This document shows positions 12,338 to 42,375 of a DNA stretch of 42,633 nucleotides, piece after piece (position 1 is the stretch's first letter; the number at the start of each line of letters is the position of its first letter). Under the pieces are notes generated by a model. It did not search any database, was not told the origin of the DNA, and saw only the letters and a program-made list of their open reading frames with translations. The position numbers and the translations under genes were made by a program. Origin of the DNA: Eremomyces bilateralis CBS 781.70 (taxonomy: Eukaryota); the NCBI GenBank assembly GCA_010015585.1, contig ML975149.1. The stretch is one strand, 5' to 3'.

Positions 12338-13285
12338 GACAACAGACCAGCTGTATTTATCTTTCTTTTACTCAAAAGACATGCAAATATCGGAAAGAAC
12401 GGACAGCGAAACTGAATATTAAGATGCGGACAGCAAAGAATATCAGAATTATGCGTACCTTCGACCAAGAGACCTGAACAATGTGACCAGGCTGCATCTA
12501 CGATTGCCTGATCTTGCGCATATATCCATCTTATCCGAAGATGTGAACGGTCGTCAGCCAGTGTCCTGTTCAACCCTGTTAGCGGTAAGCGCAGTAGCTC
12601 TAGAGGCTCAATCAATGGATCGCATGCGACAGTATCTCAACCAACAGTATCTCGCCCGGCGGCTTGGGTTCTAGCCTGTCGTCCACAAATGGATATGAAA
12701 CCAGGCACTTCGAACAGTGTATCGAATCATAGAAACCCTTACCGTAGAAGAATATACTGCCGGCAGGTTAGCCGGCGGTTACTCCGACTTACCTACTGCT
12801 GTGATTTCAGACCTGCATGCGGCGAAGTCTCTCTCCTTCTTGATGTATGGATATCCAACCTATGTTGGCCAGCACACGCCAACAGGAGGATGCGTTGGGG
12901 CGATGTTGAGCAGCCAGAGTGCCAGGTTACCGTAGTCAAATCTCGGCTCCAGTTTAAGCGCCATCTGGAACACGAATAGCCATAAGCGCCCAAGGAACGG
13001 CTCGCGCAATAACACCGAATCGCTTTGAAATGCAATATGCAAGCCACGACTGTGCCTCATTAAGACCATGCCATGTCTTGGGTTCTATTCAAGTTAAGCG
13101 CCCAGATCCTGCAGCTCAGATGTACGACTGAGGCGCAGATCGTATTTCAATCAGCAAAGCTACGGGAGAATGAAACTGTTGTCAGTGCGACGTATAGAAA
13201 TGTGGAAATTATTGAGTCGTATCAAGAACGATGCCTGGGCTCCGTAATGGTGGTGATAACCGGAAGGCGGAAGTTGAAGTGAAGA

Positions 13286-21202: not shown

Positions 21203-21676
21203 TGACCATACCTTTGGTGAAGGACTTCGAGTCGCTGCTGAAGGACCAACGTTGAAAGACGACCATTAGAGTATACCCAAAAAACATTGCGGCACTGTAC
21301 AGTAATGAAAATGCCTGTTATCATCGGCGACAGGGCGCTCTGGTCTATAGGTCCATTAGAAATCAACTTCAGGGGTACAGCATCAAATCTCTGCAAATAG
21401 GCCGGTGCCTCATCGTTCTTGATATCCTCCGACTCTGGTCTCTATAGTATGCGGGCAATAATACGGTCGTTCCATCGCCTACCGACTGCTAGCCTCATAC
21501 CCAAATAACCCAATGTCCTGTCTGACCAAATTCACCCCAGTCCTCCAAAGAATTCCAGTCCATGTGAATAATAGAACATCCATGATGCACCACACAGTAA
21601 CCATTTGTCCTAACCGCTTTTCTAAGCTCGAATCCCGCCCAAATAAAAAAATATAGATCAGAAGCCAAAAACAAAA

Positions 21677-21795
21677 ACATACAGCAATGGGAGTTCCCAC
21701 GTGGTCACCCACCGTAGTACTATTCCATCTCTAACCTGCTTGAGTACGGCAGAGCGGACGGGATGCCCTATATTCAGGTTGATGTGGCCGTATGT
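21677..21795 (-). rRNA. 5S rRNA gene, intact (119 nt)
   Basis: Reverse complement ACATACGGCCACATCAACCTGAATATAGGGCATCCCGTCCGCTCTGCCGTACTCAAGCAGG...TAGTACTACGGTGGGTGACCACGTGGGAACTCCCATTGCTGTATGT; pairing ends, T-run terminator (TTTTGTTTTT), ATATT at -27 to -23. Confidence 0.95.
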
Positions 21796-21863
21796 AGCAT
21801 TAAGTGAAACTTTTCACAATATCAACCTAGCAATCTGCAAAATTCAACAAAACAAAAACAAAA

Positions 21864-21898
21864 ACATACAGCAATGGGAGTTCCCCTATGGTCTCCCA
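21864..21898 (-). pseudogene. 5S rRNA 3' fragment (about nt 85-119) of a second, disrupted tandem copy
   Basis: acatacagcaatgggagttcccctatggtctccca matches 21677-21711 with a few substitutions and has the same terminator flank; similarity stops after 21898. Confidence 0.9.
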
Positions 21899-22010
21899 GC
21901 GGTATAAACGAGGTCGAAAACAGAGGGCCAATACCGCCGAAAGACGAGGGCCCGTCGAAAATACACTCTGGTAAGGATCGTAAAGATGCCCATTCTCCCT
22001 AGTTTTCCAA

Positions 22011-22089
22011 TCTCGCTCTCAGTCAGGAGTCCTGTTCGCAGTTTCTACAGTCTCGCCCTCAGTCAGGAGCTCCGTTCGCAGTTCTACAG
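22011..22089 (+). repeat. Two-copy ~40 bp tandem repeat upstream of the captain
   Basis: tctcgctctcagtcaggagtcctgttcgcagtttctacag followed by tctcgccctcagtcaggagctccgttcgcagttctacag. Confidence 0.85.
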
Positions 22090-22194
22090 TACCCTTCTTC
22101 AGTTCCAGTTCCATCAGGTTCGGAGGTAGTCGACGCTATCAACGCTCCACGCAGCCAAAATCCTCGACGCCTATTCCAAGATACGTCTTTGACT

Positions 22195-24678
22195 ATGGCG
22201 CCACGACGCACTATTAAAAAGGGCGAAGCCGGAGAACAAGAGGCAAAGGAGCGTCTAGCTGGCTTCCAGAGCAAGCCCCTCGACGATACGGTCCCAGTGT
22301 CGGACAGAACTACCTACAAGCGCGGCTACGCCATGTGGCTCTTCAAGGAGTACGAAACACCTGGACTTATCATGCCTATGACCTACACTCACATCCTCTA
22401 GATACGTTCGCGACGTCCTACACCGCGAGCCGGACGATACCTGGTTATCCCTTTGCAGCTCTTCACCAGTAGAGGTAGCCTTGGCTCAGGATACATGTCG
22501 TGCCTTTCTCCAGACCTATGTCTCCGACTCTTCGGTCTCCCGGGTTGCGTTGGGAGACCAAGAATCCGAGGAGGTCCGACAGGTGAATCGAGTATCAAGC
22601 GTCCTGACAGTGTGGAGAGCTCTTGTGCAGGAAGGAGACGAAGCAGTCCTTGCCCCCAAAAGAAGAGAGAACAGGTGCGCCGCGAGGCAATGGAGGCTCG
22701 TCAATCCAAGTGGAAAACTGATTTCAGGGCCCGTATGGGAGGTTTCCAATGTGAGGTCTGCCCTCTATTTATGCGGGGAAGGATACTAACGTCCCCGTAG
22801 TGGATTGTCCACGACCTTCCTTCGCTTACCGGTATCTCTAACGAACTCAAGCGCCAAAAGCGGGCTGCGACTGCTCAGGATATAGTGGTCATTATGCAGG
22901 CTCTCCTGAATCGATATCGAGATATCCTCTACTCTACGGCACAACTTAGCGACTTTGCCATGATCGTGCTCTATATGGCTATTGGCGGATTCCGGACTAA
23001 CTGTCCTAGAAACCTGAAGTATGCAGACGTCAGGATAGGACTCGCCAACGTTGACGGGAAAACGAACGTATTCGTACGAATCCGAATGCCAGAAAACAAA
23101 CTGCGAGTGGCTTCCCTAAAGCCTGCGAGCCCCGGGCGCGAGTTTGCCGTGGCCATTTTACCATGCCGACTGGTCTGCCTTGCGAGTCACGTCATTGGCC
23201 GCGCTCTAGTACGGCGTGCTTTCAGGGCCGGATATACGTCCTTTGATCAAGTTTTGACCCGGCCCAGCCTTCGAGGTTGCAAAGTCCTTTTCCTTCCTTG
23301 GGCACAAGGCCTGGGCGATCTCCCATTCGTCGATATCAGCGGGTCGCAGTTCTACAGGATATGGTATCGCTGCCGCGAAGTCGCCGGCATGGAGGATCCT
23401 CCGATCCCCTACTCTATGCGAGTCGGTTCCGGGGGCAAAATTATTGGAATTCTCGGCGAGTTGCTTGGGAATTGGATGCTTATGCACAAATCGAATACTC
23501 ACCAGGAGTATTATTTCCCGGATTACGTGTCTCAGAATCTAGCGCGTGTCACGCTGGGCGTGCTCGCGCCTCCTGAAGATGCCCTTTTCTCCCTTCTGTC
23601 GGACTTATCATCCACGGTGGATCCCTTTGCCCCATGCCACCTGAGTGAAGAAGAGTTTAAAAAGCTGCTTAAGAGACGAGATGTCCAAGCTCTTCAGGAC
23701 CATAAGACAGGACAGCGCAACCTATTAGATCAGTTATCCTACTTGGCTATTCGAGAGAAGCGGGAGAAATACTTTCGCAATATGGAAGATGCACGGGCGC
23801 TGGGAGGCAATATTACCATTACCGAGCCGCCGATTTCGAACAGCGACGTCATCGTTGATGTAACCCCCGTTGATGAAGAAGGCCGGGCTTCATTTATTGA
23901 GTTACTGGCTAGCTACTCCCGCCTTTTGAAGAGAAGCAAAAAGAATGACTCTAACCGAAACGTTCCAGATCTATGTCCTCGGTCTATCTGCGTCCTTTGC
24001 GATCCGACTGGGAAGGCTTTATCTTTCTCACAACATTCATCTCTTACTAGGCACTATCGGATCATATATTTGCGGCATGGTCACCTAGACGAAATACGCG
24101 AATGCCCAGTTCCTGGCTGCGGCTTGGCTATTGACGCTGGCGTATCTCCGTGTTACTGTCACTTAGAACGCCAGCACGGCAAATACTATACGCCCGCTGC
24201 TCATCGACATATCGAACGTTCAATCTGCGTCCTCTGCGATCCGACTGGCCGTCGGTTGTCCTTTTCCTAGCGCCAGGATTTGATAGCACACTTTAAGGCT
24301 GATCATCTACCCTTGGGACATCTCGATCAAGCTCGTCAATGCCCAGTTCCTGACTGCGGGTCAAAGATTCAAGCTGGAATACAACCATTTTGCGATCACT
24401 TGCAGCGCACGCATGGGAAGCATTACACGCCTCATCTATACAATAATGGGTTAAAGCAGCGTGAACATCATCGATTGTATAAGCGAGTTCAACCAACATC
24501 CGAATTTCAGAAAAAGAGCGCAGTTGCAATTAGAGCAAAACGGAAAGCAGATGATGATATCGGGAGGCCCGACTTTGATCTGCTCGAGCAAACGCTCCAG
24601 GACGAAATCTTTACTGTAGATTCGGATAAAGACCCGGTTGCGAAGAAACGAAAGCAAAACGTAGTTGCAGATTATTAA
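22195..24678 (+). CDS. Starship captain-type tyrosine recombinase (DUF3435-like) with C-terminal C2H2-like fingers; in-frame TAG at 24268-24270
   Basis: ATG 22195, introns ~22350-22401 and ~22751-22800 keep the frame; YR-like residues GGFR, ENK, YSMR, LMH, QEYY in order; ORF 24280-24678 continues in the same frame after one stop. Confidence 0.8.
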
Positions 24679-25080
24679 AGAGTTCTAAGTTGGGCAACAG
24701 TTGATATGTTTAACAGCATCAGAATCATTCGGCTCGTCAATGAATTTAGATACAACCTAGGAGAAAATTGCAGCGTATCTCATTTCCTTCCAACCTTCGA
24801 TGCTATGTATTTATAAATCATCATCGGAGAGTTGCTGAAACGCCTTCATCTGCAAATACGTGATGTCACGATGTTGTTCATGAGAAGAACCCATCTCCCG
24901 CGAGGAGATCGATGTACAAACTGACTTAGCCTCCCCTCCATTTACGGGAGGACACTCGGTTCTATTGGGGAACTTGCCAAAAATTCAATACCATGGCTTG
25001 CCTTCTCTTTCTTCAAGCACTATTCATACAACAGCTCTCACCGCAAATATCTCCGAGTATCCATACCTCATGATAGTCTT

Positions 25081-25337
25081 CTACATTAATAGTCGCAGAG
25101 CCCAGGTCACAGTGTTCGCCTCACACTTCGTACCATCCGCCATCGTCATCAGCGTCGCGCATCCCCAGGCGCATTGCCCAAACGTCGTCCCATCGATGCA
25201 GTAAAATCCGGTCTCCGAGCATGGGACCTGGCCGGCTGCGCATGAACGTTGCGGATTAGCGACAGGGGCGACAGGAACAGGCTTGGCCGGAGCAAGTGGC
25301 GGTTGGGCTGCCGCAGGCGAAGGCTTTGAAAGAGATA
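25081..25337 (-). pseudogene. C-terminal fragment of a secreted-type protein: Pro/Ala linker plus Cys-rich, CBM19-like carbohydrate-binding module
   Basis: PSPAAAQPPLAPAKPVPVAPV then CAAGQVPCSETGFYCIDGTTFGQCAWGCATLMTMADGTKC; 5' end abuts a solo LTR and no native start or signal peptide is present. Confidence 0.6.
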
Positions 25338-25523
25338 TGTTGAACGTTTTGGCGTGTCGATCAATCACGGAAGCAATAGGATACCTGTTCAGAGGCAGTG
25401 AGATGCTTGTATTCGGTCAGAAGTACATAGTTTACCTTGGAGGGTATATATATCCCCAGGCTTATGTAATCTTATGTAATCTACAAGATGCGGTGACTAA
25501 GTAATAGCCGCGGATTTCCGACA
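25338..25523 (-). mobile_element. Solo LTR (186 bp), no matching target-site duplication
   Basis: Minus strand TGTCGG...TCAACA; reverse complement of 35847-36031 at roughly 90% identity by eye; flanks AGATA and CACCC differ. Confidence 0.85.
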
Positions 25524-26067
25524 CACCCCCCCAGATCTTTTCTAGATCTGTATATCATAACCGTATCGCGGAGTTATCCTTCTGAATCACTTACGTTCGT
25601 TTCGGTGACAGATGTAATCATATCTCGTGGGATTGTGATGAGATGCTGAATAGATCGCATATTCAGGTGCTCGAGGAATTTCCGATGGTGCGTAGGGCAC
25701 GCGTACTACGTATTGCAAAGTCGAGGAAGGCGACACACCCAAAGACAGGAGACGTTCTCGGATTTGATAGATTGGATGGCGCATGCAGTCTAACTCATTA
25801 TGTCCCGCACAAACTACCTCACGCAGCCTTAAATTAAAGTGGACGTGAATATCTTGCGCCACCTAATTATATGCTGCCACCAACTTACATGCCTGCTGTA
25901 GGTAGTGCTTGTATTTCTCGTCTTGTACTACTGGTCCAGTCTCCGCTGCGCAGTTACATTGGTCGCAACCGCGGCGAGGAAATGTGCTCAAGAAACATGC
26001 TCAAGAAACATGCTCATGAAACAAGGGCAGATATGTATCTGGATAATTTCCTTCTGAATGTGATGGT

Positions 26068-27746
26068 ATGCCTTTTTTGCATTCGTTCTTCGCCACAATG
26101 TCGCTTCTTCCGTACTCGATGTCTCTTGCAAACTGCTCTTCTCTAGCAATTTCACTTCCTACCGTTTTTGGAGCCAAGTTATTGTCATTGGAAGCATATC
26201 CTGTTCGGAACTATTCAAAATCTGTTTCAATTGAAAGCAATTTCAACCATGACAGTCTCGAAGTCACTAATATCAGCGTCTGCAATGTCACGGTGACTCA
26301 TACACATCCAGGCCAAGGCGACACTCTAACCACACAGATTTGGCTACCGGTTCAGCCTCAATGGAACGAGCGAATGCAAGCGATAGGTGGAGGAGGCTGG
26401 TTAGCTGGAGCGTCAGAATACCAAGAGCCAGGCATGGCGGCCGCAGTTTTTGACGGCTACGCTGCGATAACCACCGATGGTGGAGTGCCCGGAGACGGCA
26501 TGAGTACCCCTTGGGCGTTGCTGAGCCCGGGTAACGTCAATCTCTATGCCCTTCAGAATGTCGCATCAGTCTCGTTGAACGATGCGGCTTTGATTGGGAA
26601 GAGCGTTATTCAGAGCTTCTACGGCAAGCGACCGACGTTCTCCTATTTCAGCGGATGCTCACACGGTGGCCGCCAGGGCCTCATGCTCGCACAACGGTAT
26701 CCCACAGCATTTGATGGCATTGCTGCCTCTGCCCCGGGAGTCAATTGGCCGAATTTCTTCGTTGCGAATTGGTTCCCTCAGCAGGTGATGAATGAGATGA
26801 AACAATATCCACATCCTTGCGAGCTGGAGGCGCTTACCAAAGCGGCGATCAAAGCATGTGATCCGAACGACGGCCTGACGGACGGTCTGATCTCAGACCC
26901 AGACTCATGCCACTTTAATCCGCAGACTCTCGTCGGAACGGGTCTGAATTGCAGTGCCACGGGGGGACCGAAAGCAATATCAGAGGCGGCGGCGGCTGTA
27001 GCCAACGCGGCATGGACTGGCGCCAGGAGCTCGAACGGTTCGATGTTGTGGTACACGCTCGGATACGAAGCGGACCTCACCACCATGATGAGCATCGCTT
27101 CGACCATGTGCTCGGAAGGCGGGATGTGCATGCCCGGAGAGCACAATTCCCTATTCTCGAGTTGGATCCAGCAGTTTGTAAAGAAGGACGAGCACTTTGA
27201 CCTGTCGAGCATGTCGAGGTCGGACTACGAGCGGGTATTCCGGGCCAGCGTTCGGGAGTATGAGTCGATCATCGGCTCGAACTTCGCGGATCTCTCGGAA
27301 TTTCGCGAGAGTGGAGGCAAGATCATTACGGTTCATGGACTTGTGAGTGGGCTTTTGTTTTAGACGTTCAATGAGAGGCCGCTGGGCGGCCGCACTAACT
27401 CGCGAACCATCAGGCGGATGAGACGGTGCCATACCAGAATACACGGCACTACTACGACGCGGTAACAGCGCTGGATCCCGAGGTCCACGACTTCTACCGT
27501 CTCTTCGAGTCTCCAGGTCTGGCACATTGTGCCCCTGGCGCTGGTGCATACCCAGCAGGCACTTTCAAGGCGTTGGTTGAATGGGTGGAGCATGGGGTCG
27601 CCCCTAGAACATTGCTGGGGAAATTTCAGAGAAGCCCGCAGGCGAACCAGACAAACCAGCAGCCAAATGAGACGAGGATTCTCTGTCCATATCCGCAGAG
27701 GGCTCGTTATCTCGGCGGGGGGTCTGTGCGTTTCGCTTGCTCTTAG
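26068..27746 (+). CDS. Tannase / feruloyl esterase family hydrolase
   Basis: IWLP..WNERMQAIGGGG, nucleophile motif YFSGCSHGGRQG, YPTAFDGI, CDPNDGLTDGLIS, GGKIITVHGL|ADETVP (intron 27343-27413), FESPGLAHC, LCPYPQRARY. Confidence 0.92.
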
Positions 27747-27989
27747 TAGTAGAGAACATTCTCGTTAGCATCGTGAGATTTTAAGTATCTCATGATGGTT
27801 TCTCAAAGGCGTAACCTAAATTACGGAACCTTTGGCTGAGTAGTTGATTGATTGATTGCTTCATGCACCTGTTCGGGCCAACATCGGTCGCCTATATGGG
27901 AACTGGCTGACTAATCTACATTGTGTGAGGCGTTCTGCTCCTGCTCTGTTCTTATTCTCCCTGTTCCAATTCATGTAGCCGAGAACAGA

Positions 27990-28320
27990 TTCGAGAGCCC
28001 ATGCAGAGCATTCAAAGGAAACAGGGTCATCACGCTAGAGAAAACGGTACATGGACGGGTTCGTGGTTTTACAAGCTAACAGAAACGCATATTCCGGAGC
28101 TTGTGCCTCCATCACTTATTGGTATGATGTCCCAAAGTTGTTGAATAGAAGGGTCCATATTCCTAATCCGATAGTATTCCATCGCGAAGCGAGGCAGAGA
28201 CTATCTATCTGCTCTTGGAGTTCAGGGGGTAATGATGAGAAAGCGAACCCGGCTTCCGGTTGTTTGTGTGGCTGACGGCGCTGTTTCGCTATGCACGACA
28301 TTTCAGATGTAGAGCCCATG
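27990..28320 (-). pseudogene. Possible decayed F-box-like (2EXR-type) gene fragment
   Basis: FAFSSLPPELQEQI resembles the F..LPPELR..I start motif; after an in-frame stop the frame continues ...FLLACK. Weak support. Confidence 0.3.
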
Positions 28321-28651
28321 ATAGATGGACGCTGGACGAAAGAAATCAAACAGGCGGGTGGATATACGAAGAAAGAAAAAGGTACGGCGATGAAAAGAGG
28401 ATGAGGAGGGGCGAATATTATATCGTCGTAATTATGGCCAATATCCCGCAAAGTCCTGTGCCTGGGGGCGGAAGGCAGAGCTTGGTGAGAGAATGAGCTC
28501 GATTTAAGGAGCTCAAGTCAAATGCAAACAGAGGGGTGGGAGAACCAATAAGAGGAGGCCACGTGTCATCGACCTTAATGTCTCACCTTTTCACTGCGAT
28601 AATCTTTTACAGAACCTGCTGCTCAGCAATTTGGTGCTCTTGAACGACCAA

Positions 28652-31222
28652 ATGGCCGACACAAGCCTGAAGCTAACATCCAGAAAGTCATCGACCCCTC
28701 AAGGACCCCTTGATGTTAACCCAGCAGACCAAAACCCTGGATTCAAATACTCGTCACTGCCAGAGAAAGAGGCAGTGATTCGTCTTCTCAAACTTCTTCC
28801 GGGCGAACCTGAGGACGATATCCGATGTGTGCTCAATGACTACAACCTTGAAGGTGCTGATCAAAAGCCATATGAAGCAATCTCTTATGTATGGGGGACA
28901 GAGGAACACTCGACTAAGATTATTGTCAACAACGAAAGGGTGAAGGTTCGACAGAATCTGCACTTAGCATTGCAATGCCTTCGACACAAATATTCGGCTC
29001 GAACGGTTTGGGTAGATGCGATATGTATTAACCAGAACAACAATAAAGAGAGAAGCCATCAAGTGGATCTGATGAGGAACATCTACCAAGGAGCAGATCA
29101 GGTAGTCGTCTGGCTTGGAGCAAGCAAAAAGCAAACCGATATTGCCATGGACTCTCTAGAGTATATGAGATATATGCTTAATAAATGTGGCGTAGGACAG
29201 AAGGAAGAATTGAAAAGGACGTCTCTTTCAAGGATTAATATCCATCATCAAGAAGCAATTGAAGGTTTTCAAGACCTTCTTCGGAGGCAATGGTTTCAAA
29301 GAGCCTGGATCATCCAGGAGATTGCTCTTGCGCGCGACGCTACCATTATGTGTGGGAAGAAGTCAATCCCAGCAGGGATATTCTCCTCTCTGTCCTGGAT
29401 GCTTGGGAAATCTTTCGAAATATCTCCAATCGAGCCCGTATTGAATGTTATGCCCGGATTCTCGAAAGACACGAAAGAGTCCTGGTGGAACATGGAACGG
29501 GACCTCTTTGCGCTTCTTCTTAAATTTCGTAACAATGAAGCAACTGAATTGAGGGACAAGATCTATGCTTTTCTTGGTATTGCAAGCGACATTAAGGATG
29601 GGAACTTTGAAGCGAGCTACGAGATCGGTGATGAAGAGCTTGTTCAAGACGTTGTGTCCTTCCTTTCCTTTGGAGTCAAGATTGATCGCTCCCTCTTCAG
29701 TGCTCCGCGATGGACATTGCATGATTTCTTCAAGAATTTAGCCTTCCTTCCGTTCATTGTTTCGGACGGAGTCAATCAATCGACCACCGTGTCGCCAGAA
29801 GCATTGAAGATTCTTTGTACAACGCGCTCTACAATTGTTGATCACGCTCACGCTAGAAGGACGCGCATCTCGACCGGTGGAGAAATTGAAGCATTTATAA
29901 CCCTTTCGAAGAACTCTAAGGAGAGTCACAGTATTCAAAACGGTACTAGGACAGTGTGTCAAGTTATCTTCAGTCATCTCTTCGAATCAAATTACCCGAG
30001 CTGGAATAATGATGGTGGATTTGAGCTTCTATTAAAAGCAGCAAAAGAGGGACACGTAGTAATCACGAGGCATTTGCTTTCAACCATAATTGTTGGAGGT
30101 AACTCGAAGGGTAACGACGGCCGAACACCGTTGTGGTGGGCCGCTGCGAACGGGCACGAGGCCATCGTCAAGTTGCTGCTCGACACAGGCAAGGTTAATG
30201 TTAACTCAAAGGATAACTACGACCGGACGCCACTGTCGAGTGCCGCTGAGCACGGGCACGAGGGTGTTATCAAACTGCTGCTCGAGACAGGCCAAGTCGA
30301 CGCCAACTCGAAGGATAACGACGACATGACACCGCTGTCGAGTGCCGCTGAGCATGGTCACGAGGGCGTCATCAAGCTGCTGCTCGAGACAGGCCTAGTT
30401 GACGCCGACTTGAAGGATAAAGATGGCTGGAGGCCGCTGTGGAGGGCCGCTGCGAACGGGCACGAAGGCGCCGTCAAGCTGCTGCTCGAGACAGGCCAAG
30501 TTGACGCCGACTCGATGGATATTTATGGGTGGACAACGCTGTCGAGGGCCGCTGCGAACGGGCACGAAGGCGTCGTCAAGCTGCTGCTCGAGACAGGCCA
30601 AGTCGACGCCGACTCGAAGTATAACTATTATGGCTGGACACCACTGTCGAGGGCCGCTGAGAACGGGCACGATGGCATCGTCAAGCTGCTGCTCGGGACA
30701 GGCCAAGTCGACGCCGACTCGATGGATATGTATGGCATGACGCCGCTGTGGAGGGCCACTGCGAACGGGCACGAAGGCGCCGTCAAGCTGCTGCTCGAGA
30801 CAGGCCAAGTCGACGCCGACCCGAAGGATAATGATGGCGGGACGCCGCTGTGGAGGGCCGTTACGTGCGGGTACGAGGGCGTCGTCAAGCTGCTGCTCGG
30901 GACAGGCCAAGTCGACGCCGACTCGAAGAATAGCTTTTTTGGCGAGACACCGCTGTCGAGGGCCGCTGCGAACGGGCACGAGGCCATCATCAAGCTGCTG
31001 CTGGACACGGGCCAGGTCGACGCCAACTCAAAGGGCATGTGCGGCCGAACACCGCTGTGGTGGGCCGCTGTGAACGGGCACGAGGCCATCGTCAAGCTAT
31101 TGCTAGACACTGGCAATGTCGACGCCGACTCGAAGGATGACTACGGCCGGACGCCACTGTCGATGACCGCCATGAACGGACAAGAGGCTATCGTCAAGCT
31201 GCTCCAACAAAAAGGCTGCTAA
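28652..31222 (+). CDS. HET-domain plus ankyrin-repeat protein (heterokaryon-incompatibility / NLR-like)
   Basis: HET motifs IRLLKL, YEAISYVWG, VWVDAICINQ..ERSHQVDLMRNIYQGADQVVVWLG, WFQRAWIIQE, RDKIYA; 11 near-identical ankyrin repeats plus one degenerate repeat. Confidence 0.93.
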   Translation: MADTSLKLTSRKSSTPQGPLDVNPADQNPGFKYSSLPEKEAVIRLLKLLPGEPEDDIRCVLNDYNLEGADQKPYEAISYVWGTEEHSTKIIVNNERVKVRQNLHLALQCLRHKYSARTVWVDAICINQNNNKERSHQVDLMRNIYQGADQVVVWLGASKKQTDIAMDSLEYMRYMLNKCGVGQKEELKRTSLSRINIHHQEAIEGFQDLLRRQWFQRAWIIQEIALARDATIMCGKKSIPAGIFSSLSWMLGKSFEISPIEPVLNVMPGFSKDTKESWWNMERDLFALLLKFRNNEATELRDKIYAFLGIASDIKDGNFEASYEIGDEELVQDVVSFLSFGVKIDRSLFSAPRWTLHDFFKNLAFLPFIVSDGVNQSTTVSPEALKILCTTRSTIVDHAHARRTRISTGGEIEAFITLSKNSKESHSIQNGTRTVCQVIFSHLFESNYPSWNNDGGFELLLKAAKEGHVVITRHLLSTIIVGGNSKGNDGRTPLWWAAANGHEAIVKLLLDTGKVNVNSKDNYDRTPLSSAAEHGHEGVIKLLLETGQVDANSKDNDDMTPLSSAAEHGHEGVIKLLLETGLVDADLKDKDGWRPLWRAAANGHEGAVKLLLETGQVDADSMDIYGWTTLSRAAANGHEGVVKLLLETGQVDADSKYNYYGWTPLSRAAENGHDGIVKLLLGTGQVDADSMDMYGMTPLWRATANGHEGAVKLLLETGQVDADPKDNDGGTPLWRAVTCGYEGVVKLLLGTGQVDADSKNSFFGETPLSRAAANGHEAIIKLLLDTGQVDANSKGMCGRTPLWWAAVNGHEAIVKLLLDTGNVDADSKDDYGRTPLSMTAMNGQEAIVKLLQQKGC
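30116..31219 (+). repeat. Coding tandem array of ~102-105 bp ankyrin units (11 copies)
   Basis: Recurrent gggcacga.ggc..cgtcaagctgctgctcgagacaggccaagtcgacgccgactcg core; GC-richer than the HET half of the gene. Confidence 0.95.
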
Positions 31223-31930
31223 GCCGAAGAATGCCCAGACCAGCGCTAACTGCCAGACATCCTCTAGAGTACTTCTGCTAAGTCCGTGGTTGGAGAAGAG
31301 CTTCATAATCAACTTAGTTTGGTTTCCGTGAGAAGATACAAGTTCATGCTTATTATAATCTATTCATCTTTTCACTTCCGAATCTCTATTCTATAGAGGG
31401 ATCCGAGGTAGCGGGTTCTTTAATAGCGAAGGCAAAGTTCGAATAAGGTTATTTCTAGCATCTTCTAGAAGGGCTGAGCAAAGATCGCGTGGTAGCTCAA
31501 GAACTCCGATTTCAACCACCTCTAGAGCATCAGCAAGAAGAGAAATGAAAAAAAAAATTGTAGGTATAAAAGAGAAAGGTCTGTTACGGCACGGTAGCTG
31601 GATGCACACAACATACACGTAGTCAAAGATATTCTTGATTAAGCTAAAGAAGAGAGCAAGAAGGGGAAGCCGTCTTGTTTATATCGAAGAGGGTTGGACT
31701 CTGATTCAACCCTTGACCTAATCAGGCTTAGGCTCGCAGCCCTAGCCAACCAAGGGTTTCAACCCATAACATTACCCACAGTACGCAGCTAGATCTCCGT
31801 TTTCACTCGTTAAAAACAGCAGTGTTACCATGTTTGCTTTTCTGATAACCCCTATGCAATCCACCAGCCACATCTCTGTGGCAATCAGCCACACCCAAGG
31901 GCCCAGGCCACAGGCCTGGGACCATAACAG

Positions 31931-32053
31931 CACCCGCGGAAAACCCCAACCCGCGGGTTCCCCCGGGTTTCTTGGCTGCGGTTGCGGTTGGGTTGGGGTG
32001 CCAAGGCCCGCGGTTGCGGTTGGGGTTGGGGCCTCAGAGCAAGCCAGACACTG
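31931..32053. repeat. GC-rich quasi-palindromic repeat patch, possible DNA-transposon end remnant
   Basis: aaccccaacccgcgggtt, repeated gcggttgcggttggg(g)ttgggg, ending ...ccagacactg; no partner TIR with TSD found. Confidence 0.4.
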
Positions 32054-33147
32054 TACACACATTGATATTTCTAAAGTTTTGTTTAATTCGTGCGATGTAG
32101 CCATTCCTTAACTTCAAGACCACTTCTACTTAAAAAATTACGTTGGCATCGCCGCCTTCTCGCCTGATTCCCGGAGAGTCTTCTTCCATACCGTAACAGA
32201 ATTATTCAGCCAAAGCACCACCATCGTACCCTTACTACGTTTAAAACTCATTAAAGGCCCTTATCCGAGTCTTAGAGTCCTACAACGATGCTAGGCATCA
32301 TCATCACTCTTGAGGCTGGAGTCGGGTGCAAATTTGCACAAGTTCGCCATGCAGATCACTACTTCAATTCCAAACGATGAATGATTCTGGCTAGCGCGGA
32401 ACAATATCCACGTAACATATACACAACCGTGATATAATTTGGCTGGGGACAAATCTCACCAGCCAACCTCTGATCTCTGACAACTTGTTTAATCATCATC
32501 CTCGCGAAATGCGTCAGTTCCGGCTCCCAGGATCAGAGTTGTGTAAAGCGCACGTTTTTGACGACCACCTTTTGAAGAGCAAGTTTGAGGCCTTTTCTGA
32601 TGATGGATCATGTCATGCCTCGAGTTACTTAAATATAATCCAATGCCCTACAACCAGTCACATCCTCTCCTAAGACCTGGGAGGCCCTGTATTGGCCAGC
32701 CAAGCATTTTAACCATGCCTCGGCACAGAGCTAAGCAGCTTGGAGGACATGGTCCTGTCGCATTACGCGGGGGTAATGATTAAGCAAGTTCGCTGCTTAA
32801 GCTCAGTTACTGTGTAGACACAGCGCATGTTGATATTGACGATTCCCATTGTATAGAAGAGTGTGTTCCAGCTAGCTAAACCGTTGAAGATAAGCAAATA
32901 CATAGGAAAAGAGTGAGCAGTCCTAAATAGGCTTAGCCTAGGGGTAATGGGCAGAGAAAGGAATGTTGCCTGGTGGTAGAAACGAACAGGGGCATCTTGC
33001 GACAGGTCCTCCCTGTTGGTTGGATGGAAGGCCTTGAGACGAAGATATATATGCTCTGCTGCTTGTCCGGATCCCGAAACAACGGTAGCTAACTCTGAAC
33101 TTTGTCTTGCATTTCAGAACTTCAACAGCACGCGAAAGATCGTCGTC

Positions 33148-35081
33148 ATGGACCACGGACCAGTGGAAGTCGCAGACTGGTATGCAGCGCTCCCTCTCTC
33201 TGACCCTCGATGCCGCAACGACTCCTGCATCGAGTTTTACGCGGACCATAATGCCTCGCAGAAGGCGATCAGTTGGGACTCGCAGTTCCGGTACGGGCAC
33301 TTGGTGTTATGGTACTACACCATCATACTCGCATTCTTCGTCGCGGTACACTTCACATATGTCGTTATAGATAGGACGCCTTGTCCTAGCGCAGAAAGGA
33401 ATCCAAGTACATTGGACAAATCCGTGGCCATGGTCCGAACCATCTCGTACCGGAGAATACCAGGGAAGCTGGGAGAGTACTTGGGCGCTCCGGGGTTGGG
33501 TGTCAGCCTTCTTGTATTTCTGTCGGTGCTTACAGTAACGATCATGGCATTTGTGCAGCATCCGTACTACCGCCCTTTCCGAGCGTACGGATCTCCTCCG
33601 CTTGGTGTCCGGACGGGATTAATGGCCAACGCTGTAATTCCTCTGACCGTTGCTCTCGCTGGGAAGGTGAACATTGTCACTCTCTTGACCGGATATGGTC
33701 ATGAGAAGTTGAACACGATTCATCGCTGGGCGGGGTGGATATTGTTTTACTTGTCGATGCTTCACACCATCCCTTTTCTGATCCAGTCGAGTTCTGCCAA
33801 AGAAGGAGGCGCTGCTAGATTACGCAAAAAGTTTTATGCTCCAGGTGCACTTGAGGTACGATCGACCACGCTCCGCATCAGACATTCCGACTCACAATGA
33901 GACCCCAGTACAATGGCACTCCTCCCCTTGGTATGCTCGCGTGGCTCGCTCTCCTATCTCTTCCCATCGTCCGTCGCCTCGCGTATGAGCTCTTCGTTCA
34001 TACGCATGTGATGGCCGCGATCGTGTTCCTTGGCCTCATGTACTGGCACTGCGGGAACTTGGGCGATAGTTGGGCTTATCTATGGGCCACAACGGCGCTG
34101 TGGCTTGCCTCGATCCTCGCCCGCTTCTTCTGGAAGATGTCCGCTTTCAAGCTCACGGGGCATTGGCTTCGCGGTTGCCCGACGACAGTCCGTGTCTTGG
34201 AACCGGGCAAGAACGGAATGGCAAGACTCGATGTCGTCGTACCGGGGGACTGGACATGGAAACCGGGTCAACACTGCTTTCTACGATTTCCACAGCTTCG
34301 GCTATTCGATCATCATCCGTTTACGATCAGCTCCCTCCCGGTCCACTTTGGTTCCTCTTTTGGAGGCATCCAGGTGAAAGTCGAACAGGTGAATGTGCTC
34401 ACATTCTTCATTCGTTCGCAGAAAGGATTCACCCGTCGACTGCTGTCCGAAGCCAGCAAGTCGCCCGACTACCAGGTTTCCGCGATTGTGGACGGCCCGT
34501 ATGGGACGCGGATGCGTACCCTTCAGCATGTCTACGAGGATGTAGTGCTGGTTGCAGGCGGTGCCGGGATAACGGCGGTGTTGCCATGGCTTTTGCATTT
34601 GGCACAGTGCATACGTGGAAACTGCGACATTGTGACAAAGCGGGTGGCGCTTATTTGGATGGTGAGGAACGAGTCTAGTGTAACGTGGATTCGGAACGAA
34701 CTCAAAGGGCTACGAGATCTCACTACTAGTGGCCATTGTGTAGTCCATGTCCATGTGACAAGGAGCAGTGAAAACGGTAGCCCAACGATCGAGGCCAGCA
34801 CAGATTTAGAGGTCAAGGAGAAGGAAGTAGGCGAAGCGATCACGGAGGACGGGTCCAGCGGAAACGGCAGCGACTTGCCAATCGAGAAGCGATTTGACGG
34901 GCGCCCGAACCTGGGAGAGCTGATACCCAAGATGGTTGGCAAGACCCGCACCGCTGTGCTGGGTTGTGGCCCGGAAGGTCTGAAGATCGACTTAAGCAAT
35001 GCGGTGGCTGGCCTTCAGCGGACGGTGCTTCGAGGCGAGGCAAACGAAGTCATGCTTCACACTGAGGCGTTTAATTGGTAA
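33148..35081 (+). CDS. Ferric reductase-like transmembrane protein (FRE/NOX family)
   Basis: PLGVRTG, ALAGKVNIVTLLTGYGHEKLNTIHRWAG...MLHT, YELFVHTH...YWH (heme His pairs), WKPGQH, HPFTISS (FAD), VDGPYG, VLVAGGAGIT, CGPEGL, LHTEAFNW; intron 33856-33908. Confidence 0.93.
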
Positions 35082-35383
35082 GCCTTGGTCGCTCAGAGCA
35101 TGATAGACTCCAAGATATGATTTGGTTAGGATGTAATCAGATATCAAAATGTACGTACATAGTGTTGTAAATACGTGAAATTCTCTGGTCTCATAAACGC
35201 CTCGAATCCAACAGAACTCTACTGCTGCTTCCGTTGGTTCGGATCTAGATTCGTGGTAGACAGGCGATGCCGACGTTATGTTGGTTGACTTGTCCGTCCA
35301 CACTTCTAAACTTAGAACAGCTGGCTTGTGGAAACAGGAGGGTACGGGCCCTGACGACGAATGACAAGGGTTGCATTACCAAT

Positions 35384-35432
35384 TCAGAACGGGCTTCTTT
35401 GCTTGGAGTGCAAGCAAAGAAGCCCGTTCTGA
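35384..35432. repeat. Perfect 22 bp inverted repeat with 5 nt loop
   Basis: tcagaacgggcttctttgcttg-gagtg-caagcaaagaagcccgttctga. Confidence 0.95.
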
Positions 35433-35846
35433 TTTTGTGCAGTTTCAGAGCCTTCTTATGGTATAGAAACTAGCGAAATTGGCTTCCGGTTTTTGCAGCT
35501 CCAGAAACTTTTAGAGCACAGCCTCCTTTTAGGTCTTGGCGTAAACTACATTCATGCATCGATTCTTAGTGATCTGTGCGCCACAGTATTGTTTCAGATT
35601 TCAGAATTCAGGCTTTCAGGGCTCAGGCTTTCAGGCTTTCAGGGCTTTGTGCCTGGTGGTATCACAGGTTCCCTGAGGTTACTTTTCGAATCTCCTCTCA
35701 GATCGCTGATGATGGGCAAAGTGAGGCCCTCGATAATGGCCCAGCCATAGGCAGGTACGTTGGGCCTCTCCGGCCCAATTTTTAAGGACTGTAAAAGCCT
35801 GTTCTGGGGCGTTGGGAGCCCGATGTCCACGCAGGTACTGTCTATC

Positions 35847-36031
35847 TGTTGGAACTCCGCGGCTATTACTTAGTCACCGCACCTTGTAGATTACATAAGA
35901 TTACATAAGCCCTGGGTATATATACCCGTCAAGGTAAACTATGTACTTCTGACCGAATACAAGCATCTCACTGCCTCTGAACAGGTATCCTATTGTTTCC
36001 GTGATTGATTGACACGCCAAAACGATCAACA
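35847..36031 (+). mobile_element. Solo LTR (185 bp) with 5 bp target-site duplication CTATC
   Basis: Starts TGTTG, ends CAACA; CTATC at 35842-35846 and 36032-36036; internal gggtatatataccc TATA-like palindrome. Confidence 0.92.
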
Positions 36032-36180
36032 CTATCTGTTCACCCCTGCAACCCATTCACACTCCTTCTTATGCCTATTGTCTGAGAGTAGAAGCAACCA
36101 ATTTTGTAGGGGCAAAAGTAGTTTTCGTAGGGTCTTGCCCTCACGAAATGAATGGTACTTGCTCCGTCGTCCTCGTTTTG

Positions 36181-36203
36181 TTCAGGTTGATATGGCCGTA
36201 TGT
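36181..36203 (-). pseudogene. 5S rRNA 5' fragment (nt 1-23)
   Basis: ttcaggttgatatggccgtatgt matches 21773-21795 at 22/23; ATATT at -27 to -23 (36226-36230), the same offset as for the intact gene (21818-21822). Confidence 0.85.
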
Positions 36204-36984
36204 ATTAGAAAACGAACCATTTAGAAATATGTACTCAAGCAGGCAATGAATAGGAACTTGCATTCTGCTTCCAGTTTTCTTCCTCTCTCGCATCTGGATT
36301 TCAGTCAAAGAGGATTAGAGGATGCCTGCTATTTCCTCTTCGCCATTTTCCCGCCTTCGACTCATTCCTGTAACGGGTCTTAGTGCACACCATTCTGATT
36401 GATCTTCCCGCCTTCCATTCATTCCTTATAGACTATAGTACTGCGATATCATGCGGTCTTGCTACAGATTTCTCTCTTCCGCCCTGTAGAACCAATCTCA
36501 TATGCGATCTTTCTGTATGAGTCTATAATGGACAGTTTCCATGAACCGCGGGCTGGTGGCCGCTCTCTTGGCCTTCCTCTGTAGGAAAAGTTCAAGTTTT
36601 TTACCTCCAATTTAAGTCAAAGTTTTCGTTAATTGGTACGCAGCTGGGCGCCTGTGGCATTGTGTTCATCCTTGCTAGGCTTCAGTTGGCGTCGTTTGGG
36701 TGTGTTGCAACGAGTACCGCCCGAATTGCCTGATAGGGATATTAGCCAGAATATTGCACACTGTGGGCCACTCAAGAAGTGGAGGGCCTTCACTTCCCTC
36801 CCTCTTTGATGTCGCTTTCTAAGTTTCTTAACTCAAGCTCCGCGTGTCGCTGCTTCTCTCCTGATCTCAACTCTCCTACAGAACCTCGTGGCTCATTGGC
36901 CCAACGGTTCGAGCCTTATGATACGCGAAGTAACAGTAGCTCTAGAATACTCTGCGCCATTTATATAGCCCCGAGTCGCACAAT

Positions 36985-37645
36985 CGAATACAAGCGCGTG
37001 GAAGTAACAACCGAAGATATCGCTGTTATTGTGAAGACTATATGGGATTGCTTTCAAGATATCCGTTATACACCACAAGTCCGGACTTCTTTCCATACAG
37101 TCATGTTACTTACTGGGATAGGAGGTTTTCGACCGGATTCATTAACCACGGACATTCTCTTCAAGCAGGTCACTTCATCAGTCGTTAGAAACCCTTGCGA
37201 CGGTATCGTAAAGATCTCCCTCGTAGCTAAGATCAGCATCGGGCGGGCGAAAATAAGAGCGACCACTAGTACTTATGGTCATACCGCGATAATATCTACC
37301 TCAGTCCCTACTTCGAGCGCTACTAACTCTGTCTCAGTGTTACCTTCTACACCACTTTAGTCCCATACAAGCCATTCTGCCTTCTCAGTTTGATTGTGGC
37401 CGAAGCCATTGCACAAAATGCCTTCCAGACAAGTTTCAAATCCTTAAAGACATTCTTTCTCGACCACTACTTAAGGACATTGACTATCTACCATTGCCAT
37501 AGGCATCTAAGATGATGGAGAGACCGCTATTCCATGTTTCTCCGAGCCGTCTACATGAAGTGTTCAGAAAATGTTGCACGGTGGCCGGATCTCGGGATGA
37601 GCCCCGACTGTACAGCCTTCGCGTGGTCGCAGTGGCCAGACTCAT
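36985..37645 (+). pseudogene. Second captain-type tyrosine recombinase, decayed and truncated
   Basis: KRVEVTTEDIAVIVKTIW...LLTGIGGFRPDSL; intron ~37269-37337; LVPYKPFCLLSLIVAEAIAQNAF; frameshift ~37447; ILSRPLLKDIDYLPLP*; CCTVAGSRDEPRLYSLRV. Collinear with the first captain, ends before the His/Tyr motifs. Confidence 0.8.
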
Positions 37646-37650
37646 AGTCA

Positions 37651-38952
37651 TTACGGATCCATCTTTTCATCGACTCTCCTTTTGGAGTCAGGACTGCCAC
37701 CCGGTTGGTCCAATACTGACTCACGGCTCTTATTGCCCCCCCAGCTGCCTGGATTATTCAAATGAGTGGCTCTGTTCTGGCTCTGTTCTGGCGCTGTCCA
37801 CTCCTCGTCTCGTTCGCTGTGGCTCTGTTCTGACGCTGTCCACTCCTCGTCTCGTTCGCTGCGGCTTTGTTCGAGATCATCGGTTTCCTCTTTCTTTTGG
37901 GCTCGGCTCAACTGCCATATCCGAGACTGAACGCCGCTGGTAGATACGTGAGACTCGCCACGGGCCGGAATCAAGTGCCATTTCCTTAACCAGCCTTCCA
38001 TAGGTGCTTTAAGGAATGGAGCACAAGCAGCGATAATCCCTGTCGTCATCTCCGCCCATGCCCAGGACGCCCACAGGTGTCCTTCGTATATTGGATCCTT
38101 GGATTTTTCAATGCGACTTGCGATGACGAGTTTCACAACCGCAATGGATGACGTGATTAGTCCCAAGCCCATCAAGCAAGAAAGCAGGATCCTTTCTAAG
38201 AGACTTCTGTTGATTGTGCGTATAAATATTATTGGCACAAGGGAAAGGCCGATGTCAATCAAGATGTGGATGGCTGAGGCAATCATTATAATCAGTATCA
38301 CAAAGGTCATTGCTGCGGGTCAAGATGGCGGGACTTACTGGAGTACACCAGACTCTTTCGGAATACCTTTTTATAACCCATACAGACATCGCCAGTAATG
38401 CTTGCATCCCAAAGAGTCTGCACAGGGCGACAATAGGAAACATCCCACAGAAAGATACCCAGAACAAATAGCAATTGAAATATGATCACTGCATACAGGC
38501 CGATGCGCCACGGGCCTGTCTTCTTCACTCGCAGTATCATGAAAGCGATGGACATCCTGGTGAGTGCCACGGTCCAGAACCATAACCAGGTGCTGATCAC
38601 AAGGTACATGCGCAATATCATTATTTGCTCCTTTGTAAGGAACAATATGGGGGTTCCGCTTCCATATTGGTAGCTGAGAACTTGTACAACGCATAATCCG
38701 ATTATGATCGGCTATGCGTGCCTAGTTAGCTTATTCTGTTGCACAATGGTCTTCATGACTGAGTGGACATACAAATGCGATGGCCACAAGAGCATCGTCC
38801 CACCAAATCCTCCATGCTGGTCGAATGTGCACATACAGTCTTAATAAGATAAAGATTCCAGATACGCACATGCAAGAAATTATTGTTGCTCGGAGTGGAT
38901 CTTCCTTCGATACTCCGGGAGGAACGGTATCGCTGACCTTGGGAACACCCAT
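37651..38952 (-). CDS. Pth11-like fungal rhodopsin-domain integral membrane protein (GPCR-like)
   Basis: LLRLYVH...WWDDALVAIA, LTRMSIAF..LRV, CRPVQTLWD, IDIGLSLVPI, LMGLGLITS, WAWAEMTTGIIAACAPFLK; two inferred introns. Confidence 0.85.
37781..37872. repeat. 42 bp coding tandem repeat (~2.2 copies) in the GPCR C-terminal tail
   Basis: ctctgttctg(g/a)cgctgtccactcctcgtctcgttcgctg(t/c)gg twice; encodes EQS(R/H)SERDEEWTA(S/P). Confidence 0.9.
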
Positions 38953-41148: not shown

Positions 41149-42375
41149 ATGTCTGAAATGTATATATTCCTAGAGAACTAATATAGTTTAAATTACTGAC
41201 GCGATTTTAGCCAGCCTTTAGAGCTGCAGTATGACTACCATGGCGTAGAAGACACGAAACGCGCTCAATGCATTAGATATTTCCTCCTAGGTTGGTCACC
41301 ACAAGCTATTGCAGCGGAAACTGGCCTAGGAGTTTCTACTATCTACCGCTATCGTGCACATCTTGTTCGATATGGCTCTCTTCGTGCCCCATACCGCCGG
41401 AAACGGGGCCGTCCTTGTTTATTGTCGCAAGCAGACGAAGACGCGCTCTTCGAGAAACTACTCCAGGAAGGGTGGCTATATCTTAATGAACTCGTATTCT
41501 GGTTGGATATAGAAAGAGGCGTACACGTTAGCGAGTCTACGGTATGCCGCGTGATTAAGCGGAGACGCTGGTCACGAAAAAGAATGAGGTAGATCTCGCG
41601 GAATCGGTCACAAGAGATGCGGGAAGCGTATCAAGCGGAGCTTCGTCAGTTTGACGCCGATGATATGGTCTTCCTTGACGAGTCGATCTTCAATGAGAAG
41701 ACGGGCTGGAGATACCGTTGTTATTCGCCCATTGGGCATGAATCCCGCGGTTTCAGGAACATGCATCGGGGAAAGACTTGGGCTGCTATCGGGGCGTATA
41801 CGATCAGAGGCTTAATTGCCTATGGCATACGCCAAGGCTACTACAGTCGAGAGCATTTGATTCAGTGGCTACGGGACGTCCTGCTTCCGTCTTTGGCTAG
41901 AGACTCTCCTCGTCCACGCGTTATCATACTTAATAACTGTTCGACGCATGTTTCAGAGGATGTTATAAGGCTTCTCGAGGAAGCAGGACATCTTGTACGT
42001 TTTACGCCACCCTACTCCCCAGACTACAACCCCATCGAGATGGTCTGGTCGGTCCTTAAAGCTTGGATTAGACGTAATCACGTCTATACGCGCCATCTAT
42101 GTAGCAACTTTGGCGAGTTCCTCGACTTTGCTATTACGCGCAGTCAATGTGACCGCTTTGGGCTCGAGCATTTTGCAAACGCAGCTCACGGGATCTATAT
42201 CTCTGACCAGCGATATGATGAGCTTCGTGTACAACTCCGTGGGTTTGAAAATGGGAGGGTAGGGTATCAGGAGAATCTTGTTCTCGAGGACGACGTTCTG
42301 GTCTATGACGATATTGACGAGCGAGTAGTTGATAATGGTGAACCCTTCCAGGAAGATGAGGAAGATGAGGAGTAA
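41149..42375 (+). mobile_element. Tc1/mariner (IS630-like DDE) transposase, inactivated
   Basis: Possible ATG 41149 with intron 41160-41210; HTH GWSPQAIAAETGLGVSTIYR, GRP, VSESTVCR; in-frame TAG 41590-41592; FLDES, ILNNCSTH (second Asp replaced by Asn), PPYSPDYNPIE. Confidence 0.9.

Follow-up and report, generated by a model that had tools for sequence, protein, structure and literature searches.

A stretch of 42,633 nucleotides from contig ML975149.1 of the fungus Eremomyces bilateralis CBS 781.70 (assembly GCA_010015585.1), hereafter the window, contains between positions 21906 and 36178 an element of 14,273 bp that lies between two pieces of a 5S rRNA gene. We regard it, with a probability of roughly 0.62, as a decayed copy of a multi-copy Starship transposon of the Arwing family, with its own captain recombinase and copy-specific cargo that consists of tannase, HET-ankyrin and ferric reductase genes. 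An earlier interpretation of the same DNA, made without database searches (the sequence-only reading), had proposed a complete, small Starship inside a split 5S gene; most of the anatomy on which that proposal was built has been recovered here, together with signs of decay.

The captain recombinase

The captain gene, encoding a DUF3435 tyrosine recombinase, occupies 22195..24678 on the plus strand. It is the first gene of the element and reads inward, and its ATG at 22195 lies 289 bp from the left terminal repeat, in agreement with the distance of about 290 bp from the left edge that had been estimated from the sequence alone. The profile search that had been proposed as a check gave a clear result: Pfam DUF3435 (PF11917) matches the main exon of the captain at 5.8e-15, with 55.6 bits against a cut-off of 25.8. 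The frame from 22195 to 24678 is interrupted by three in-frame stops, the first two of which lie inside GT..AG introns (22350-22401 and 22751-22800) separating the exons 22195-22349, 22402-22750 and 22801-24678. The third, the TAG at 24268-24270, falls in the main exon and cuts off the second of two conserved, zinc-finger-like Cys/His modules at the C-terminus.

The spliced captain is collinear, without a gap, with P152DRAFT_347678, a protein of 793 residues from E. bilateralis CBS 781.70, and is identical to it at 763 of the 793 positions (96%). R233, K268, Y372, R375 and Y406, which stand in invariant or nearly invariant columns of an alignment of 24 relatives, are all retained in the captain and, read from the motifs of tyrosine recombinases, are putative catalytic residues. 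Nineteen of the 30 amino-acid differences from P152DRAFT_347678 correspond to G:C>A:T changes in the window copy, 14 of these 19 in a CpA/TpG context, and the others comprise six transitions in the opposite direction, four transversions and one codon with multiple changes. The captain bears a mild signature resembling that of repeat-induced point mutation (RIP), the nonsense change CAG>TAG included.

An exhaustive phmmer search gave 328 matches with E-values of 0.001 or lower, the closest non-self proteins among them being only 31-34% identical; judged by these proteins, the captain lineage is isolated outside E. bilateralis. Its placement in a Starship family is indirect and would follow from the 96%-identical paralog: in the parts of Gluck-Thaler and Vogan 2024 (PMC11162782) that were available, E. 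bilateralis is entered with 15 recombinases but 0 elements, the paralog stands under fam09 as erebil1_347678, and Table 1 gives family 9 the name Arwing. According to the same parts, Arwing is one of three Starship families that insert mostly in 5S rDNA, its insertions occur in either direction at a CCCG/GGGC core, and predicted elements below 15 kb were discarded, the smallest reported element having 15,020 bp. The published E. bilateralis paralogs are located at about 802.6 kb on erebil1 scaffold9, 2.372 Mb on scaffold1, 1.182 Mb on scaffold3 and 1.493 Mb on scaffold6.

The split 5S rRNA gene and the edges of the element

An intact 5S rRNA gene is present at 21676-21795 on the minus strand (Rfam RF00001, 85.1 bits against a cut-off of 38, model positions 1-120) and is the neighbour of the split copy. 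When it was compared with the window by blastn-short, 5S positions 98-120 were found again at 21863-21885 (23/23, E 6e-8) and positions 1-23 at 36181-36203 (22/23, E 1.5e-5), both on the minus strand and hence co-oriented. The left, 3' fragment (21853..21901) includes 10 nt past the end of the gene, so that it forms, with the corresponding part of the intact gene, a 49-nt direct repeat of 90% identity (21666-21714 and 21853-21901); beyond the exact stretch, positions 97 to about 79 match at 11/16, and the likeness fades by about 79-81. Upstream of the right, 5' fragment (36181..36203) stands the motif ATATT (36226-36230, minus strand), which occupies -27 to -23 in both this fragment and the intact gene, as the sequence-only reading had noticed. 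The Rfam covariance model detected neither fragment, and their identification is therefore based solely on sequence identity. Thus, the claim of a split minus-strand 5S gene holds insofar as two co-oriented pieces exist, but these are not adjoining halves, positions ~24-78 being absent from both. The idea that the middle of the gene is concealed in the ends of the element was rejected, the scores being no better than those of shuffled sequences (130 to 468 of 500). As a possible further trace of a 5S gene, an exact 13-mer of positions 49-61 is found on the opposite strand at 36231-36243 (plus strand), 27 nt from the 5' fragment, with an E-value of 0.058 window-wide.

Terminal inverted repeats are frequent, although not universal, in Starships. 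Here, an inverted repeat with 11 of 12 matching positions lies 2-5 nt from the 5S pieces, its left copy reading AAACGAGGTCGA at 21906-21917 on the plus strand and the complement lying at 36167-36178; a match as good was obtained with 2 of 1000 60-mer pairs drawn at random from the window and with 10 of 1000 shuffles, in support of the earlier observation of such repeats at both edges. The proposed extent of the element runs from the outer end of one copy to that of the other, and the right junction corresponds to 5S position 23/24. Within the left end, upstream of the captain, a 40-nt tandem repeat in two copies (22011..22090, plus strand) differs in copy number among paralogous copies, as seen from the contig joints 22025-22083, 22026-22119 and 22043-22110. 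The right terminal region (36037..36180, plus strand), which holds the right copy of the inverted repeat, is multi-copy in the source organism according to contig variants. A scan of metagenomes for the exact pattern of the left junction gave 0 matches.

Copy number in the source organism

Two sets of DNA contigs (X1 and X2) match the flanks of the element without differences, and single-copy depth in X1 is about 233. A further set, X3, was taken as RNA because its joints in the genes for the chaperonin, the tannase and the ferric reductase are of the GT..AG type, and a run from another organism (X4) matches the window only at the 5S gene and at ankyrin repeats. In X1, the summed depth declines along the captain, from 3777 over its 5' part (22036-22669) through 2227 (22670-23303) and 1325 (23304-23937) to 729-997 over its 3' part (23938-25205); it is 237 at the tannase gene and 213 at the ferric reductase gene. 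Since depth summed over contigs does not give a copy number, these values are read only as several copies of one part and a single copy of the other. Variants at the termini give the same picture: the variant at 22010 was found on eight other contigs, those at 36071 and 36119 in the right terminus on six and eight, the deletion at 36156 on five, and the right-terminus variants and indels (36114/36153/36156) taken together on one to eight. Thus, the captain and both termini exist in several copies, whereas the tannase and ferric reductase cargo exists in one. Among the variants listed for the captain region in the RNA contigs, letters that differ from the window make up the whole of the depth or the greater part of it.

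Cargo genes and interior repeats

All three kinds of cargo gene that had been named from the sequence alone were recovered as Pfam matches. The tannase/feruloyl esterase gene (main open reading frame 26047..27363, plus strand, 2.4e-62) has an intron at 27343-27413, is single-copy and is transcribed, an RNA contig covering 25655-28466 with 0 differences. The HET-ankyrin gene (28508..31222, plus strand) is an open reading frame of 904 codons that includes an array of 102-nt repeats at 30102-31203; its protein matches the HET domain at residues 122-271 and ankyrin repeats from about residue 537, and an RNA contig covers 28592-29740. The ferric reductase gene (32980..35081, plus strand), with an intron at 33854-33906 and with matches to Ferric_reduct, FAD_binding_8 and NAD_binding_6, is likewise single-copy and transcribed (RNA contig 32978-35061). 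Over the three genes, the RNA contigs show 0-3 differences and GT..AG joints.

Cargo of the NOD-like receptor (NLR) or HET type had been anticipated, and of this expectation the HET-ankyrin part stands. Neither NACHT nor NB-ARC was matched in the HET-ankyrin protein at Pfam E-values up to 0.01, and in the absence of such a nucleotide-binding oligomerization domain (NOD) an identity as NLR is unsupported. Recent horizontal transfer of the ferric reductase gene was considered and set aside, as the best of 95 matches is only 39% identical and there is hence no sign of such an event. Contigs of single-copy depth, from DNA as well as RNA runs, connect 33002 with 28592, and also 21886 with 29955 on opposite strands. 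None of the internal repeats of the window explains these joints, which point to the existence of a close HET-ankyrin paralog at another place, with unlike neighbours, one of them beside the 3' end of a 5S gene.

Two copies of a dispersed repeat of about 186 nt, which resembles a long terminal repeat (LTR) and has TG...CA ends, lie inside the element in inverted orientation and are 93-95% identical to each other. The copy at 25338..25523 (plus strand), where contig ends are loose at 25338, has no target-site duplication, and the copy at 35847..36031 (minus strand), at which seven contigs have loose ends at 36031, has on both sides the 5-bp duplication GATAG, read in the orientation of the repeat. 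The alternative that this inverted pair represents the ends of a different transposon was rejected in view of the contig breaks at 25338 and 36031, the TG...CA ends and the one 5-bp duplication. That the left copy lacks such a duplication could be the trace of an internal deletion by which the element became small. A high-copy dispersed repeat with approximate bounds at 31580..31930, to which no strand was assigned, has a summed depth of 16352 against ~233 and contig loose ends at 31771, 31885 and 31929. A short dispersed repeat at 32814-32978, between the HET-ankyrin and ferric reductase genes, has a summed depth of 3526 against ~233 and many loose ends. About 300 nt past the ferric reductase stop, a near-perfect hairpin with 28-nt arms and a 5-nt loop is found at 35378-35438; its sub-threshold matches to microRNA models were taken as chance likeness.

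Flanking DNA and a second captain

The left flank of the element is of housekeeping character and encodes a quinolinate phosphoribosyltransferase, a Nop-domain protein and, at 19.6-21.3 kb, a TCP-1 (CCT) chaperonin. Elsewhere in the window, two divergent DUF3176 genes are located at 6969-9116 (plus strand, 8.8e-25) and 9682-12364 (minus strand, 2.9e-24), with adjoining genes of the beta-lactamase fold. A Tc1/mariner-type transposase is present at 41200-42375 on the plus strand, as a helix-turn-helix open reading frame (41200-41589) followed by a DDE_3 open reading frame (41593-42372, 1.1e-30).

To the right, 0.55 kb from the 5' piece of the 5S gene, lies a truncated fragment of a second captain-like gene (36749..37652, plus strand), which corresponds to residues ~40-385 of its relatives, matches DUF3435 weakly (E 0.26) and was recognized by tblastn. 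A search with 150 proteins yielded 416 segments, 203 of them outside the first captain, and the 60 of these 203 that were listed all fall within 36749-37384; P152DRAFT_347678 aligns to 37371-37652 in the fragment. The fragment shares 30% identity with the first captain and is single-copy at a threshold of 85%, and a comparison of the upstream regions of the two captains revealed no similarity. It ends where a minus-strand gene with a fungal-rhodopsin domain (37651-38708) starts.

Just left of the upstream region of this second captain stands a possible, strongly diverged 5S piece (36272..36335, minus strand, positions ~80 to 21), whose likeness was equalled by 6 of 1000 shuffled sequences and by 8 among 1140 segments of the window, in which Rfam detected no 5S gene, and which ends with CTATTTC at a site of the Voyager type. 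With the second captain and this possible third 5S piece close by, the locus looks like a small cluster of 5S genes that was struck more than once, that is, a small 5S-linked Starship hotspot.

Probable history of the element and alternative explanations

The following history would account for the structure of the locus. We infer that the element entered as a single unit: captain-mediated site-specific recombination would have placed it at position 23, or close to it, in a 5S gene that belonged to a small cluster and lay on the strand opposite to the captain. About 55 nt of the target (5S positions 24-78) would later have been lost at the captain-side junction, and two copies of an LTR-type repeat would then have landed inside the element. 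The captain would have gained RIP-like G:C>A:T changes, among them CAG>TAG, by which the second Cys/His module was lost and the predicted catalytic domain was spared. With this nonsense codon, the copy is probably not autonomous, and an intact paralog such as P152DRAFT_347678 might mobilise it in trans.

Several observations weigh against this reading or limit it. The third stop of the captain is a true nonsense codon, CAG>TAG at residue 658 (Q658 in P152DRAFT_347678), at the expense of 135 of 793 residues; together with the lack of a direct repeat, the 55 missing nucleotides of the 5S gene and the two LTR-like copies inside, it leaves the earlier description of the element as complete without support. 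The assignment to the 5S-targeting kind of Starship is favoured by the DUF3435 captain, the 5S pieces and the fam09 paralog, but the Arwing core CCCG/GGGC (5S positions 28-37) falls in the missing segment and is found at neither junction, and the two 5S pieces are non-adjoining, unlike in the published clean 5S insertions. A shared short direct repeat was not seen at the junctions when 21890-21905 and 36165-36195 were compared by reading, and it is noted in published work that direct repeats of Starships may be degenerate. The inverted repeat comprises only 12 nt, and a longer, gapped extension lacks significance, as 37 of 1000 shuffles and 47 of 1670 100-mers from the window show. The proposed boundaries were read from one genome, and a joint that skips the 14 kb is absent among the 15 joints listed of 53. 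The union of right terminus and captain in one multi-copy family is read solely from their similar depth. Furthermore, another single-copy contig joins 35735 to 36340 with 33 other letters between, thus spanning the proposed right edge, which hints that the sequences flanking this edge are contiguous elsewhere.

This last joint would also fit a rearranged locus, in which the remnant of a captain and a left end came to lie beside genes that were resident or separately gained, the block from tannase to ferric reductase was never carried by the captain, and the two 5S pieces stem from different genes of a decaying tandem cluster or from different insertions. The gap between the 5S pieces (24-78), the single-copy cargo beside a multi-copy captain, and the adjoining second captain fragment and possible third 5S piece would fit such an origin, and so would the LTR-like copy without target duplication on the left, as could result from recombination or deletion between captain and cargo. 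Nevertheless, we consider it unlikely. An 11/12 inverted repeat 2-5 nt from both 5S pieces arises in 2 of 1000 random pairs, the right terminal stretch 36071-36156 is also multi-copy with a depth like that of the 5' part of the captain, and the conserved Starship-associated genes of Macrophomina elements include a ferric reductase in the portion of PMC9156397 that was available.

A different placement of the boundaries would dispense with the deletion. If integration regenerates the target gene, the element would extend from about 21796 to 36180 and bring its own 5S promoter and the first 23 nt; through recombination at 5S 23/24, the native 5' piece would then have ended up at the right edge, the intact 5S gene at 21676-21795 would be the rebuilt product, and the 23-nt start of the 5S gene would serve as the direct repeat (21773-21795 and 36181-36203, 22/23). 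The intact gene does adjoin such an element directly, and the upstream spacer, from 21802 or 21820 on, recurs at no fewer than two further 5S loci of the source organism (joints 36208-21802 and 36202-21820). However, the inverted repeat would then lie 110 nt inside the left end, and the 49-nt fragment of the 5S 3' end would be left inside the element without a role. Moreover, the published direct repeats in 5S genes, as far as the available passages go, are 6-16 bp long and internal, and the gene is said to be disrupted by the insertions. In five contigs, the match starts at 21854 and runs rightward, preceded by unlike sequence, which would fit copy-specific downstream flanks but may simply reflect ordinary ends of 5S genes. 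Taken together, this makes regeneration of the gene very unlikely. To a mobile unit that carried flanking DNA along and inserted at 5S 79/80 we give scarcely any credence. The unit would be 21902-36271 and would contain, besides the element, the 5S 5' piece and 68 nt of upstream DNA acquired at a previous 5S site, with 36272-36335 as the other half of the target, already hit at position 21 by a second element. The left piece indeed ends at about 79, the diverged piece begins at about 80 and ends at about 21, and the second captain starts ~0.3-0.4 kb beyond it. Yet the diverged piece is weak (6/1000 shuffles, 8/1140 segments) and is missed by Rfam, two target positions for related recombinases would be needed, and positions 120-98 are exact as against an identity of ~65% for the rest.

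The decayed Arwing-family Starship therefore remains the explanation that we prefer, and it and the three rivals predict different ends for the other genomic copies. A more far-reaching version of it is quite unlikely: E. bilateralis might harbour a family of minimal Starships of ~14 kb, too small to pass the length filter of current surveys, in ~6-10 copies that share both termini, differ in cargo and each reside in a 5S gene, and an intact paralogous captain could move the copy with the nonsense codon in trans. In a bolder form still, integration might rebuild a working 5S gene from a promoter and 5' end borne by the element, by analogy with bacterial islands at tRNA genes.

The boundaries of Starships are usually called by comparing individuals only. 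In the present case, the split 5S target yields boundaries from a single genome, and if these hold, the element is among the smallest Starships that carry cargo and has a handy size for transposition assays. It is notable chiefly for these two features, the small size and the boundaries readable from one genome. Given the premature stop in the recombinase and the unclean insertion, it is probably an inactive element of a known kind, and since targeting of 5S genes by Arwing is already known and the copy is probably dead, the gain in knowledge is incremental.

Comparison with known systems

A literature search of main texts found no co-mention of "Eremomyces bilateralis" and "Starship", and a Pyricularia preprint that names Arwing contains, in the portion available, no passage on 5S genes or target sites. 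As described in the available parts of PMC11162782, Arwing elements (family 9) resemble the element in the captain being first and reading inward and in the 5S context; they differ in that the element has no direct repeat and the CCCG/GGGC core at neither junction, and with 14.3 kb it lies below the 15-kb filter.

A second point of reference is Voyager of Macrophomina phaseolina, which belongs to family 10 of the same clade 3. According to the available excerpts of Gluck-Thaler et al. 2022 (PMC9156397), the insertion site of Voyager is invariably 20 bp from the start of the 5S gene, and its direct repeat is GCCCTGTATTCT. Mapped onto the 5S gene of the window, GCCCTGTATTCT is the reverse complement of positions ~21-32. 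The Voyager site and the right junction at position 23/24 lie within 3-4 nt of each other. From the way in which the repeat is written, the 5S gene of Voyager would lie on the strand opposite to the captain, as it does here. Ferric reductases and NLRs are, according to the same excerpts, among the conserved accessory genes of Macrophomina Starships; Voyager carries ferric reductase and NLR-type accessory genes, and the element described here has a ferric reductase. In contrast, Voyager is ~97 kb long, its 12-bp direct repeat is clean, its empty sites have been resolved, and its captain is of family 10, not 9.

The left side of the element has a counterpart in Starship-1 of Aspergillus niger, which also targets the 5S gene and whose direct repeat, ACATACAACAGAAGG in the part of the source available, resembles the reverse complement of the 5S 3' end when compared with the 5S gene of the window. 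The captain-side flank of the element consists of the final 23 nt of the 5S gene, in the same orientation. The A. niger element is 75 kb long, and the element described here differs from it further in that a second copy of the 3' end is lacking at the right edge.

At the level of the locus, the pairing of a 5S cluster with two captains echoes the 5S-linked hotspots of Aspergillus fumigatus (10.1101/2024.06.28.601215). In the 5S-rich hotspot on chromosome 3 of that species, as portrayed in the available part of the report, several 5S copies have been fragmented by several Starships; in the window, one intact 5S gene, two or three fragments and two captains occur within 16 kb. The hotspot of A. 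fumigatus comprises 6-8 intact 5S genes and elements of 47-152 kb and is backed by population data, whereas the locus in E. bilateralis comes from a single genome and has far smaller, decayed elements.

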